Shown in pieces: positions 1 to 64,000 of a DNA stretch of 64,000 bases. The notes under the pieces were generated by a model that searched no databases, had not been told where the DNA came from, and was given only the letters and a program-made list of their open reading frames with translations. Every line of letters starts with the position of its first letter. Position 1 is the first letter of the stretch. This DNA is from a virus (lineage: Duplodnaviria; Caudoviricetes), in IMG/VR virus record IMGVR_UViG_3300014204_000013, positions 13,181-77,180 of that record; one strand, written 5' to 3'. A program made the position numbers and the translations under genes.

Positions 1-105
1 TTCATTGAGGCTAATCAAGGTAAGATGTCTGGTGCGGAGATTGCAAAGACGTTGGGGAGATCGAAGTCTTCGGTGAATAAGTGGATTGCGGAGAAGGTAG
101 TTTAG
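1..105 (+). CDS. 3' end of a helix-turn-helix protein (truncated by window edge)
   Basis: Frame 1 reads FIEANQGKMSGAEIAKTLGRSKSSVNKWIAEKVV-stop, a typical HTH pattern. Confidence 0.6.
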   Translation, partial: FIEANQGKMSGAEIAKTLGRSKSSVNKWIAEKVV

Positions 106-633
106 ATGGAGATTGAACTTACACAAGGAAAAGTTGCAATAGTAGATGAAAAATATGCTTATCTGAATGAGGTTAAGTGGAGTGCTACAAAAGATGGTAG
201 ACCTTCAAATCAAGTTTTTTATGCTTGTCGCGTTATAGGAACAAGAAAAGTACATAAAATGATTCTTATGCATCGTGTTATTCTTGAGAGTATGATTGGG
301 CGATCCATGATAGCAGGAGAACAATGTGATCATATAAATCATAACGGTTTAGACAACAAGTGTTTGAATTTAAGATTAACTACAGTACGTGAAAATCATT
401 GTAATCAACGAATCCAAGGAATAGATAAATCTAGTAAATATAAGGGTGTTCATTGGGATAAAAGTCGTTCTAAGTGGCAAGTTTCAATTAAAAATTACGG
501 AAAGCAGATATTTTTAGGACGATTTATAGATGAAGATGATGCTGCTTTTGCATATGACAGAGCGGCAATTAAATATCATGGAAACTTTGCGTATTTGAAT
601 TTTCCAGATATTGAAGAGATAGTTAAGTTTTAA
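106..633 (+). CDS. HNH homing endonuclease with C-terminal AP2 DNA-binding domain
   Basis: MHRVIL...CDHINHNGLDN..NLR HNH core, then SKYKGVHWDKSRSKWQVSI...LGRF..EDDAAFAYD AP2 motif. Confidence 0.9.
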   Translation: MEIELTQGKVAIVDEKYAYLNEVKWSATKDGRPSNQVFYACRVIGTRKVHKMILMHRVILESMIGRSMIAGEQCDHINHNGLDNKCLNLRLTTVRENHCNQRIQGIDKSSKYKGVHWDKSRSKWQVSIKNYGKQIFLGRFIDEDDAAFAYDRAAIKYHGNFAYLNFPDIEEIVKF

Positions 634-707
634 TTTACGTATATTTCTTTTTTACAAATTTGTTTATATACAACATTGTATATAGTACATTTTGGAGTGA
701 TACAAGA

Positions 708-947
708 ATGGCCTTTATACCAATCAAGGATATGGGGTCTGCTGGTCTCGTTTTGTCGGGATATGGCCGCCCATATCTTAAGAAAGCATCGTATGAAAAG
801 GGTTTCAATCCTGCTCACCTGCAGCCTTATCAGGCTTCTTTCAGCCAGGCTTCCAAGGAGTGCTCTGCTGCAACTCGTGGAATGTCCGGTATGGAGAGAG
901 CTAAGGCCAAGAGTGGCTGCATGTCCAGTGCTTTGGGTGGAAGGTAG
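708..947 (+). CDS. small basic Ala/Ser/Gly-rich protein (79 aa), possible virion or nucleoid protein
   Basis: ATG at 708 preceded by GGAGTGA RBS and TTTATATA; part of ORF 660..947; product unrecognised. Confidence 0.6.
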   Translation: MAFIPIKDMGSAGLVLSGYGRPYLKKASYEKGFNPAHLQPYQASFSQASKECSAATRGMSGMERAKAKSGCMSSALGGR

Positions 948-948
948 G

Positions 949-1200
949 CTAAGGCCTACCTAATATCTCTTTCAGCTTTTCTTCGTTTAATCTTTCTCCT
1001 GTGAACAAATAATCCACTGTGAAAAATTCTTCATCTACTTGTAATACGGGTGCAGATATCGCGAATATGCCATGGGTTCGTAATTCTGTTAGAGCTTCAG
1101 GTGTTGACATGTCTACTGCTTCAAAATTAGAGATGGCTGCCGCAAGTATCGCACACTTAGGGCAGTTAGGTGTCTTATAAATCTTAATTTGCATTTTCAA
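949..1200 (-). CDS. glutaredoxin/NrdH-like redoxin
   Basis: IKIYKTPNCPKC (CxxC) and SAPVLQV cis-Pro motif; ATG at 1194 is the probable start. Confidence 0.8.
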   Translation of the reverse strand: MKMQIKIYKTPNCPKCAILAAAISNFEAVDMSTPEALTELRTHGIFAISAPVLQVDEEFFTVDYLFTGERLNEEKLKEILGRP

Positions 1201-1320
1201 ACCTTTGGAGATGTGTCTGCCCAGGTGTCGCGCATGCTATCCTAGATCTATTGTAAATTGGCATGATTACCTCTAAATCTCGCTTATTACGTTCCTCGTT
1301 TATGTTACGTTCTTTTTTCA

Positions 1321-61112: not shown

Positions 61113-61459
61113 TTGGTTTCACCTCATTAACATGCCTGTGAGCCGTCAAAGGAGGCTAAGGCGGCTCATCAGGGTTAATTAAAGACCATTAACAATTAGA
61201 TCCTTTATCAATGTAAGCAAAAAAATTATAAGAAACGTGCATATCACGGTGCTCGCCACCGCAATTAGGATTTTGAAATAGTGATCTAATGTCATCTTGG
61301 GATCTCCATTATAAGTTCAAGGGTTTCACGGTCAAAGACGGTTATCTGTTCGTCGTAATATCTGATTATTTCTACATCGGACTCGATTTCTTCAATTAAC
61401 CTCCTCAGAATCACCTATTTCTCCTTATCAGTAGGACGGAGAAATTATAATAAATTGTT

Positions 61460-62345
61460 GGCCGAGGCCCGCCAATCCCCATTGGTAGCTACTCCAGAGA
61501 GTAGCGATTCGGGCCTGTCGTCGTGAGATCCACAGATCTCATTAACCGGGAGTATCCGCTTTTCACCGTCGCTGGAAGCTAAGGTTACTTCGCTGGATTT
61601 CATCAGTAGTGAGAGCATTTTAGGAACACTAAGGTTCCTTCTTCAGACCTAGACTCTCTAATTCGCCGTTAATTTGTTGTGAGATGGAGTCCCGCATAAC
61701 GGTTACACTCAAGGTCTTGCAGTCGGTCTATCAATTCCGACATTGGGCTTGATCGTTGTCACTTCCGGTATCATTGGGCTTATTATGAGATTGATTTTTC
61801 GTCTTTATGAACTTATGCTTATGGGTAAGCATAATCGTGATCATTTTATCTCATTGTTGTCGGGTCATGACCGGCCCGGCCCGTTGGGTAAGGTGACTGT
61901 ACCTAGCCCTACGAATTTTGCAGATTAAACTTACAGGCTATGCTTATTAGGCCACTACCCGTAAGCTTAACATAACCGCTGCACGCCGTTTATCAGCTTT
62001 TCAGCTTTTGACCTATAACTGATATTTAGCCTTGACACAAGGTTGCAATTCCCCTTATGACTTATCAAGGACGGCACGGTTTATCGAACCTTTGCCTTTT
62101 CAGGATGTTTATTACGGATTGACTTTCAAAAAGTCTTATGCGTCCATACGAAAATGGCTTTTCCATCATGGCCATTTAAGAGGTTGCTGCTTTTTGTTTG
62201 GAGTTTTTTTGAATCACCTTCTTATTTGCGGTTTGTTCGTTTGGTCGTTTGGCATTGGGTTTTTTGGGTTACTCAGTTTTTCGCCTCGGTTTATTCCTCA
62301 GTCGCGGCTTTTCCCGGTGTTTGGGTTTTTCACCTTTCGACACCT
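61460..62345 (-). ncRNA. candidate giant structured ncRNA (~900 nt), class unassigned
   Basis: No credible ORF; more than ten hairpins and multibranch junctions; TATA-like AAAATATATATA at ~62355-62366 upstream on the minus strand. Confidence 0.65.
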
Positions 62346-62399
62346 CCCCCTTAGGTTGTGAGTATATATATTTTGCTCAGCATTAATGGTTGTTGTTGT

Positions 62400-62990
62400 C
62401 GATTAATGAAACTATTTGTACATTGATGTATAAGTTTGTACGTTGGGTGGTTATGGGATTTTGGGATATGAGAGATGAAAAATGGGTAAGGGGTTGGCTG
62501 ATAGTGGTTTTTGTGGCGCGGCGGCGGTGCGGGGCGGCGGCCAATTGCGATTAAGATAATGGGCAGATAGTTGGTAAATGGACAGATGTGGACAGTAATG
62601 GACAGATGTGGACATTTTGGGCGTGGGCCGGTTCGCGGTGAAAATTGGATTAAGCCGACGCATAGCGGTTTTTAGGGCGCGGTGTTTTTTCCTACTATAT
62701 AGTGACGTTCAATAATGGCGATTGATTGCGATTTATGTTTGATAAATGGCGATATATTGCGGTTTATGTGGGATATATTTAATTTGATATGGGATATATT
62801 GAAATGGATAATAAATGTATTAAGATATATGTGAAATGGATTAAAACGTATAAGGCTTATAGCCGATAGATTAGGATTGAGTAGGATAAATGATAAAGGA
62901 TTGAGTTAAGATTGATTATAGCGTTATATGGACTGTATGGTGAGGAAGATAAAAGGTACTTAAAAACAATTTAATCGTAAAGGGTTCTAG
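62400..62990. repeat. G/T-skewed low-complexity non-coding tract with short repeats
   Basis: GGACAGATGT twice with a GGACAGTAAT spacer (~62580-62614); recurring GATATAT and GAAATGGAT. Confidence 0.5.
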
Positions 62991-63009
62991 GGAGTTTTTG
63001 ACTCCCTAG

Positions 63010-63681
63010 TTAGAGATGGATTATTTGCTCAGTATCCTGCATTTCATTACAGCATTTTATGACGTTGGTTAATGGTTTTTCATAAATTGACCATTTGGAA
63101 AGAGCTTTAGATGTATTGGTTATTGTTATACCTTCTTTGATATTTAGAATATGCGCCGGAATAAGCCAAACGTGGAGAGGTTCTAAATCTTCTCTGCTAT
63201 TGAATGCTAGTAGTAAATAAAACTCTGCGATTGGATTCTTTTTAATAAGATAGTTCCAATATGGATGATAAGTTTTTGTGTATCCTTCTTTTGAAATTCC
63301 GGTTTTTGGGTAGTGTAGGCATGAAGCTTTAACGTCTATTTTAAAGCCTTTGCCGCAAATAAAATCATAATTTGGATTGTTTAAAGGCATTCTTATGATA
63401 TGGTCAAAGAAATTGGATAATGCTTTTTCGGCTATAGCAATGCCTAAATATGAAGGACATTCTTTATTTTCGGACATTGGTTTTTGACCATTAGCATATC
63501 TTTTTGTAGTTGTTTTTGTATTTACTATATCTTTATTGGCTTGATAATATACTTTAGATATGAGGTTTTCGCATTCTCGGCAATATGTTCTTAATTCACC
63601 TTTATGTTTTCCCGAATTATGAAAACCATAAGCAGATAACGGTTTTGGTATTTTGCATTTACCACATATCTTTTCTTGCAT
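63010..63681 (-). CDS. Zn-finger + PD-(D/E)XK-like endonuclease, family copy 3
   Basis: CGKC..KPL..Y..CREC; PNYDFIC.KGFKIDVKASC; ends KWS.YE..L.NV..CC like the other copies. Confidence 0.7.
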   Translation of the reverse strand: MQEKICGKCKIPKPLSAYGFHNSGKHKGELRTYCRECENLISKVYYQANKDIVNTKTTTKRYANGQKPMSENKECPSYLGIAIAEKALSNFFDHIIRMPLNNPNYDFICGKGFKIDVKASCLHYPKTGISKEGYTKTYHPYWNYLIKKNPIAEFYLLLAFNSREDLEPLHVWLIPAHILNIKEGITITNTSKALSKWSIYEKPLTNVIKCCNEMQDTEQIIHL

Positions 63682-64000
63682 ACGAATTATAGGTTCTATT
63701 AACTTAAATACTTTTCTATGATATGACTGATAACTATTTATAGGAGAATGATGGCGCTAGATAACGATTTAATGAATATGAATATTAGATAAACGAAAAT
63801 AAATAAAAATAAATTATTTTTGAGTTAATATTTTGAAAATTAATTCATTTTTCTATTATAGGGGGATTATAGAAAAAATGATATATACTATATGGTACCA
63901 AAATAATTGATGCATATAAGTCAATGACCACATATAGCCATTAATCCGCCCAAATAAGCATTAAGTCCCATATCGGAGCATTTGGGCCGATAAGAATCAA

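Follow-up and report, generated by a model that had tools for sequence, protein, structure and literature searches.

Prokaryotic viruses built on a double-jelly-roll (DJR) capsid protein have genomes of about 7-18 kb, which are among the smallest of double-stranded DNA viruses, and they usually encode an FtsK/HerA ATPase; the only precedent for DJR viruses without this enzyme is found in the smallest ones, the Odin and FLiP groups (PMC5894146). In archaea, the tailless Chaacviridae and Ixchelviridae (Coyopavirales) of ANME-1 (Methanophagales) possess DJR capsid proteins that share no sequence similarity with those known before and were recognised only by AlphaFold modelling (PMC9894754). Here we analyze a stretch of 64,000 nucleotides (the window), corresponding to positions 13181-77180 of the 77,180-bp contig IMGVR_UViG_3300014204_000013, with emphasis on a putative capsid protein of 393 amino acids (aa) and the genes around it. 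We propose, with a probability that we estimate at roughly 60%, that this genome represents a new lineage of archaeal viruses that infect Methanotrichaceae, have a DJR capsid but no tail, and possess large genomes (about 66-84 kb). Our searches of the literature outside subscription journals revealed neither a description of this lineage nor any described virus of Methanothrix.

The first 124 bp of the contig are repeated directly at its end, the record is classified in IMG/VR as having direct terminal repeats, and CheckV reports a completeness of 100%; because of this repeat and the CheckV estimate, the contig can be taken to cover the entire genome, which measures about 77.06 kb and is either circular or terminally redundant. 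The 13 kb of the contig outside the window (L001) were read as well. The initial annotation, made from the letters of the window, had seen here a large archaeal virus genome without the hallmarks of tailed viruses, with a continuous viral gene set comprising PolB, a helicase, nucleotide enzymes, MC1 and a plus-strand structural block. The former is supported for the complete 77,180-bp record, and matches to Pfam and PHROGs confirmed that all elements of the latter are present, the structural block extending over 34451-47211.

The gene on which our proposal centers is the following:

34451..35632, plus strand: 393-aa protein with a double-jelly-roll fold, candidate major capsid protein (structural model and gene context)

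Structure prediction covered two proteins, this one and the 357-aa protein discussed below. The AlphaFold2 model of the 393-aa protein, calculated with 41 homologues as the alignment, comprises two beta barrels (predicted local distance difference test, pLDDT, 93.4; predicted template modelling score, pTM, 0.92). It matches the capsid proteins of PRD1, PR772 and STIV over the full length, and further structural matches include phiCjT23, FLiP, faustovirus and vaccinia D13. Because the matches to DJR capsid proteins extend over the full length, the predicted fold is a double jelly roll, and the model displays two vertical jelly-roll barrels in one chain, the feature by which Varidnaviria/Bamfordvirae are recognised. 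At the level of sequence the family is isolated. An exhaustive HMMER search identified homologues in 55 clusters, down to 25% identity, while Pfam gave no family for the 393-aa protein and none of relevance for the 41 homologues, and no significant sequence or profile match was obtained to the known DJR capsid families (PRD1 P3, PM2 P2, STIV B345 and the capsid protein of nucleocytoplasmic large DNA viruses, NCLDV). A tblastn search with the 393-aa and 357-aa proteins against the whole phage collection also gave no match. From the fold combined with the gene context we infer a role of the 393-aa protein in the capsid, and its oligomeric state and the morphology of the particle are likewise proposed.

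Comparison with seven IMG/VR contigs, which served as relatives for the analysis of synteny, delimits a conserved module at about 26.7-47.2 kb. Three distant relatives are referred to individually, namely the contigs L009 (84 kb), L011 (66.7 kb) and L120 (29 kb). Besides the capsid candidate, the module and its immediate surroundings contain the following genes:

28394..30732, minus strand: block of genes for proteins of 130, 279 (Cys-rich), 142, 144 and 82 aa, adjoining the virion module in all relatives; no Pfam or PHROG matches
30679..31950, plus strand: coiled-coil protein of about 400 aa, rich in Ala, Glu and Lys and probably translated from the ATG at 30766; possible scaffold or capsid-size ruler
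31947..33147, plus strand: 119-aa and 285-aa module proteins, 41-62% identical in relatives; no family matches
33339..34148, minus strand: 269-aa HNH-type endonuclease, an insertion just upstream of the capsid candidate with no counterpart at this site in any relative
35642..37237, plus strand: tandem pair of paralogous 263-aa proteins with N- and C-termini in common
38433..39506, plus strand: 357-aa protein whose model shows two jelly-roll domains plus an insert of helices; candidate vertex/turret or second capsid protein
39493..39885, plus strand: beta-rich protein of 123-130 aa, candidate penton (vertex) protein by size, composition and position
39888..47211, plus strand: putative spike/fibre set of 347, 523, 577, 313 and 485 aa, assigned by family matches and the look of the sequence

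The order of genes upstream of the capsid candidate is retained even in L009 and L011, whose capsid candidates are only 32% identical to the one studied here: a coiled-coil protein of about 400 aa (396-402 aa in these contigs), a protein of about 120 aa, one of about 285 aa, and the capsid candidate. The coiled-coil protein is helical and of low complexity, shows 44-45% identity in close relatives and has no Pfam or PHROG match; it may act as a scaffold or size ruler. The 285-aa protein, whose C-terminal half is amphipathic/hydrophobic, is detectable in L011. Downstream of the capsid candidate a small gene recurs, coding for 141 aa directly after it in L011 and for 118 aa directly after the 348-aa homologue in L120, while in L009 one gene separates the capsid candidate from a gene for a 137-aa homologue (30% identity) of the 130-aa beta-rich protein. 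The latter is 57-67% identical in close relatives; no homology to the 141-aa gene of L011 or the 118-aa gene of L120 was detected, and the profile of its family matched no PDB sequence. Its size, composition and position make it a candidate penton.

The 357-aa protein has 22 clusters of homologues and is missing from L011. Its model (pLDDT 79.6) displays two eight-stranded barrels with the helical insert between them, so the initial description of both 34451..35632 and 38433..39506 as jelly-roll-like agrees with the structures predicted here. No profile similarity between the 357-aa and 393-aa proteins was detected, and the family profile of the former retrieved nothing from PDB sequences. We considered whether the 357-aa protein might be a second DJR capsid protein and rejected this assignment: among the matches listed, none aligns it to any DJR protein over both domains. 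We read it instead as a probable vertex/turret or accessory shell protein.

The gene for the 263-aa protein underwent a tandem duplication specific to this genome; close relatives possess one copy, L009 and L011 none. Between these paralogs and the 357-aa protein, the region 37225-38094 encodes two small Cys/Pro-rich proteins (168 and 118 aa) in which CP..G motifs recur and for which no homologue was detectable in the compared loci of the relatives. In the spike/fibre set, the 347-aa protein is a predicted beta-helix (DUF1565, 1.9e-6) with a Pel9A-like beta-helix homologue in L009, the 523-aa and 577-aa proteins are large and beta-rich (the latter propeller-like by eye only), the 313-aa fibre is conserved in relatives only in its first ~60 residues, and the 485-aa protein is beta-helix-like with an N-terminal anchor. 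The beta-helix, beta-rich and fibre proteins would be expected to serve as spikes or adhesins. A 148-aa gene with a signal peptide lies on the minus strand inside 39888..47211.

Hallmarks of tailed viruses were sought by comparing every open reading frame (ORF) of at least 200 aa to all families of Pfam, and the majority of the large ORFs also to PHROGs. These scans gave no match to a terminase, portal, HK97 capsid, sheath or tube protein, and six-frame searches with PF03237 (Terminase_6N), PF03354 (TerL_ATPase) and PF05065 (Phage_capsid) were empty in this genome. In a control set of 14 known genomes, PF03237 matched eight, PF03354 three and PF05065 several. Terminase_6N was also empty in five IMG/VR relatives, three of which are complete at 69-76 kb. 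The PHROG "tail" matches of the 313-aa and 347-aa proteins span short segments of the fibre type only; the values obtained for tail-protein matches in the spike/fibre set are 2.4e-8 and 2.4e-4. The failure of the initial annotation to recognise a portal, terminase, HK97 capsid, sheath or tail tube is thus borne out, also for the remaining 13 kb of the contig, where Pfam and PHROGs detected no packaging or capsid gene and neither a packaging ATPase nor a terminase was found.

Two genes located just beyond the module bear on how the DNA might be packaged:

47677..48111, minus strand: MC1 chromatin protein (PF05854, 1.3e-16), extended at its N-terminus by a Lys-rich segment of ~45 aa
48174..49646, minus strand: 490-aa protein with a disordered Pro/Lys-rich N-terminal half and an AAA_24 P-loop ATPase domain (PF13479, 1.8e-12)

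Six-frame Walker A scans of the genome revealed no stand-alone P-loop NTPase other than the 490-aa protein. The latter matches phrog_1366 (4e-75) and, weakly, a Sak4-like family (7e-5), and its neighbors in the ESM Atlas, identified by a protein-language-model cluster search, are all AAA_24 proteins, mostly from tailed phages. We considered and rejected this protein as an A32-like packaging enzyme, given that its neighbors are of the AAA_24 or Sak4 type and that no PDB sequence matched it. A signal of Pox_A32 (PF04665) was also discarded, as its 11 bits at the P-loop are generic and recur in 14/14 control genomes. The ~45-aa extension of MC1 is not found in cellular MC1, but 14 clusters of such extended MC1 proteins occur in metagenomes; the extended form could be a DNA-condensing protein of the virion.

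MC1 also provides information about the host. The nearest named cellular homologues of the viral protein all belong to Methanothrix or Methanotrichaceae. In a comparison with 392 genomes of the class (105 of Methanotrichaceae and 287 others), nearly all Methanotrichaceae yielded matches with E-values of 1e-15 to 2e-19 and 54-61% identity (the exceptions being one genome with 1e-12 and three without a match), whereas almost all of the matches in the remaining 287 genomes were weaker (the best at ~5e-15, most at 1e-8 to 1e-12); the 150 best matches are all in Methanotrichaceae genomes. A 60-nt segment of the virus (58750-58808) matches, with 80-91% identity, a repeat that is present in multiple copies in 58 of the 105 Methanotrichaceae species genomes, while outside this family only a weaker 44-nt core was found, in 16/287 genomes. 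In the virus this segment overlaps the 3' end of a gene for a 91-aa zinc-ribbon protein, in the inspected host loci it lies outside clear genes, and it corresponds to no Rfam family; it may be a miniature inverted-repeat transposable element (MITE), an RNA element or a recombination site. Short stretches of the PolB and dCMP (deoxycytidine monophosphate) deaminase genes show 75-88% DNA identity to genes of Methanotrichaceae genomes. A search for CRISPR spacers in the 105 Methanotrichaceae species genomes covered positions 1-20000 and 26001-64000, i.e. 58 kb, all within the window. The chunk 26001-46000 gave chance-level matches only, and none of five loci checked lies in a repeat array; the matches of the other two chunks are PolB, dCMP deaminase and the 60-nt repeat. 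The Methanothrix/Methanosarcina-like host initially suggested can accordingly be narrowed: MC1 and the 60-nt repeat point to Methanotrichaceae (Methanothrix) as the most likely host, rather than to Methanosarcina. Of the spacer matching that had been suggested along with it, the outcome was the host-type repeat and no match of the spacer type.

Our proposal of a large DJR virus of Methanotrichaceae is built on gene content, fold, synteny across relatives and host-linked genes, and several results weigh against it. A profile search of the 393-aa family against PDB sequences returned nothing relevant, and the probability obtained with hhalign for STIV B345 was 0.5%, i.e. no profile similarity. 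An FtsK/HerA (A32-like) packaging ATPase was found neither by Pfam and PHROGs among the ORFs of at least 200 aa nor by the Walker A scans, although most DJR viruses possess this enzyme and a genome of 77 kb would presumably require it. A hydropathy scan of 26-48 kb detected no cluster of small transmembrane proteins outside other genes; since the virion module has no set of such proteins, the "membrane-containing" particle of the initial annotation is unsupported here, though it may still hold. As concerns the host, the 58 kb searched yielded no spacer match in the 105 species genomes, and the G+C content of the virus is 39.7%, whereas the median of the host loci is 51%; for these two reasons the host assignment is good but indirect. 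Finally, cellular GH172 enzymes match the 393-aa model with scores equal to those of viral capsid proteins, and the fold alone does not discriminate between a capsid protein and a GH172-type enzyme. The 393-aa protein might then be a GH172/DUF2961-like carbohydrate-active or receptor-binding protein of the virion, with the shell made of an unrecognised protein and the particle having some other, possibly archaea-specific morphology. We regard this as unlikely, albeit worth serious consideration. None of the 41 family members matches the DUF2961 model of Pfam or any glycosidase family, and no conserved residues of the catalytic type are apparent: only G123, T260 and D366 are invariant across the 41 homologues, invariant polar residues are almost missing, and Gly, Pro and Asn make up most of the near-invariant positions, a pattern more in keeping with a structural protein than with an enzyme. 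In the seven IMG/VR contigs the 393-aa protein is the most conserved product of the module (77-78% identity, compared to at most 66% for all others), whereas spike and receptor proteins are here the least conserved. Its pairing with a close-downstream gene for 118-141 aa is retained in very distant relatives, and among the named clusters of the protein-language model, PM2 P2 and PRD1 P3 rather than GH172 are the closest to it, although with scores of 0.82-0.83 this is a lead only.

The remaining alternatives concern the nature of the element as a whole. A highly divergent member of Caudoviricetes, with a portal, a terminase and an HK97 capsid that escaped detection, the last perhaps as a cryptic fold in an ORF other than the two modelled, and with a 2862-aa helical protein resembling a tape measure, would account for the likeness to tailed archaeal viruses in genome size (66-84 kb), AAA_24 ATPase, PolB and primase/helicase, for the "tail protein" and "tail fiber" matches of the 313-aa and 347-aa proteins in PHROGs, and for the presence of a long helical giant protein. 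We consider it improbable: terminase large subunits are usually easy to detect, yet neither this genome, in scans of the ORFs of at least 200 aa and in six-frame searches, nor the three complete relatives yielded one with models that gave matches in the controls, the sole stand-alone P-loop ATPase is of the AAA_24 type, portal, tube and sheath had no matches, and the "tail" matches are confined to short fibre-type segments. Least of all do we favor a large plasmid or another mobile element bearing jelly-roll surface proteins, a possibility that we consider very remote. It would be compatible with the lack of a recognised packaging enzyme and with the majority of genes having no known family, but a virion-type module (DJR-fold protein, spikes, fibres and scaffold-like coiled coil) is kept in many contigs with terminal repeats, both CheckV and IMG/VR describe the record as a complete virus, and no conjugation or partition gene turned up in any scan. 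A capsid protein of the spindle-virus type (small, highly hydrophobic and alpha-helical) was also considered, and in the conserved module the hydropathy scan revealed no small ORF outside other genes that would encode two transmembrane helices.

Under the preferred reading, that of a tailless DJR virus, the 393-aa protein would be the major capsid protein, forming pseudo-hexameric capsomers of an icosahedral shell. The 130-aa beta-rich protein would form the penton, the 357-aa protein with two jelly rolls a component of the vertex or turret, and the beta-helix and fibre proteins the spikes for host recognition, while the 400-aa coiled-coil protein would act as a scaffold or size ruler. Because no FtsK/HerA ATPase was found, we speculate that either the lone AAA_24 ATPase packages the DNA, or DNA condensed by MC1 is enclosed during assembly. 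A more specific version of this proposal, which we hold tentatively and at somewhat worse than even odds, is an archaeal DJR lineage of the rank of family or higher, with genomes of ~66-84 kb and Methanothrix as the host, which lacks FtsK/HerA and carries its own MC1, its genome being perhaps a nucleoprotein enclosed by a route unseen in large DJR viruses.

The genes outside the virion module include a block for replication and nucleotide metabolism and a giant protein with its neighbors:

2323..13909, minus strand: replication/nucleotide block comprising an XPD-like helicase with intein, a 553-aa protein, PolB with intein, dCMP deaminase, HNH-AP2 endonuclease and a ThyA-like enzyme
2323-4917, minus strand: XPD-type helicase with a Hint/LAGLIDADG homing-endonuclease intein (Pfam)
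7926-11552, minus strand: PolB with an intein and LAGLIDADG domain (PF00136, 7.7e-93)
11976-12371, minus strand: dCMP deaminase (1.5e-24)
12995-13909, minus strand: divergent ThyA-like (thymidylate-synthase-like) protein, weak matches only
16700-17887, minus strand: SNase protein flanking the giant PEGA protein (Pfam/PHROGs)
17874-26462, minus strand: giant 2862-aa PEGA protein, long and helical, conserved beside the virion module
26691-27917, plus strand: SNase-like/PEGA protein flanking the giant PEGA protein (Pfam/PHROGs)

The 13 kb outside the window add a primase/helicase, a radical-SAM protein and a PolB-type exonuclease. The virus thus encodes a replication apparatus and replicates by its own RNA-primed machinery, involving PolB, the primase/helicase, the XPD-like helicase, the AAA_24 ATPase and the enzymes of nucleotide metabolism. 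The genes for dCMP deaminase and the ThyA-like enzyme are close to each other (11976-13909, minus strand), with that of an HNH-AP2 endonuclease between them, and the two enzymes may provide a modified pyrimidine for the viral DNA. Pfam identifies two HNH-AP2 endonucleases in the genome, and free-standing HNH endonucleases are located at 106-633, 12374-12898, 33339-34148 and 56311-57093, in addition to both inteins.

The arrangement around the 2862-aa protein recurs in L009, where a 3590-aa gene is accompanied by an SNase/PEGA gene. Three otherwise unrelated proteins, encoded on the minus strand at 6232-7893 and 17874-26462 and at 7037-7660 of L001, have in common an N-terminus in which a leader of the type MVIQL.../MVIKL... 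precedes a stretch rich in Ser, Thr and Gly, and the product of 15820-16650 (minus strand) possibly also bears such a leader, which could be a signal for virion targeting or processing. As for noncoding regions, no tRNA gene was detected in the window, and no part of it, including the long stretches without a credible ORF at 27945-28390 and 61460-62345, matches an Rfam family at the gathering score. The intergenic segment 13994-14130, with no evident ORF, shows 73-80% identity over 100-137 nt to two Methanotrichaceae genomes.

If our proposal is true, the genomes of this lineage are four to ten times the 7-18 kb range of prokaryotic DJR viruses. Large DJR viruses are known only from eukaryotes, and expansion of the genome on a DJR capsid would then have occurred also in archaea, raising the question how such a large genome is packaged without the usual ATPase. 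Methanothrix is a globally important acetoclastic methanogen and a dominant producer of methane in digesters, wetlands and rice paddies; the family of the 393-aa protein would offer a tractable marker for finding its viruses.

Among the described systems, PRD1 and PR772 (Tectiviridae), STIV (Turriviridae) and PM2 (Corticoviridae) have the same capsid fold as that predicted for our candidate, and the proteins are of similar size (393 aa, compared to 345 aa in B345 and 395 aa in PRD1 P3). The layout also resembles that of DJR viruses of the Tectiliviricetes type, with a small beta protein encoded close downstream of the capsid gene and with vertex and spike genes, and the jelly-roll turret proteins of STIV resemble the modelled 357-aa candidate of the present genome. 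In contrast to the Tectiliviricetes-type viruses, whose genomes are of 10-18 kb, that of the present virus is of 77 kb, shows no detectable sequence or profile similarity to them, and was found to contain neither an FtsK/HerA ATPase nor a set of membrane proteins, while it encodes MC1, inteins and the 2862-aa protein. PRD1 is linear and protein-primed, whereas here the genome is circular or terminally redundant, with RNA-primed replication. Cellular GH172/DUF2961 glycosidases share the fold with equal structural scores, but here a DUF2961 match is missing and the context is one of viral morphogenesis. Methanosarcina spherical virus (MetSV; Tectiviridae in GenBank) is likewise tailless, infects a methanogen of the same class and has an annotated PolB and ATPase, but its genome of 10,567 bp is smaller by a factor of seven, and the capsid proteins annotated in it, ORF15 and ORF16, are small (~100-146 aa). 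The initial statement that the present virus is much larger than the small described tailless viruses of methanogens therefore holds (77 kb compared to 10.6 kb). Chaacviruses differ in their genomes of 10-11 kb and their protein-primed PolB (PMC9894754). The Odin and FLiP groups likewise combine a DJR capsid protein with the absence of FtsK/HerA, for which assembly of the capsid around the genome has been suggested (PMC5894146); these are the smallest DJR genomes, and at 77 kb such an ATP-independent enclosure would be unprecedented.

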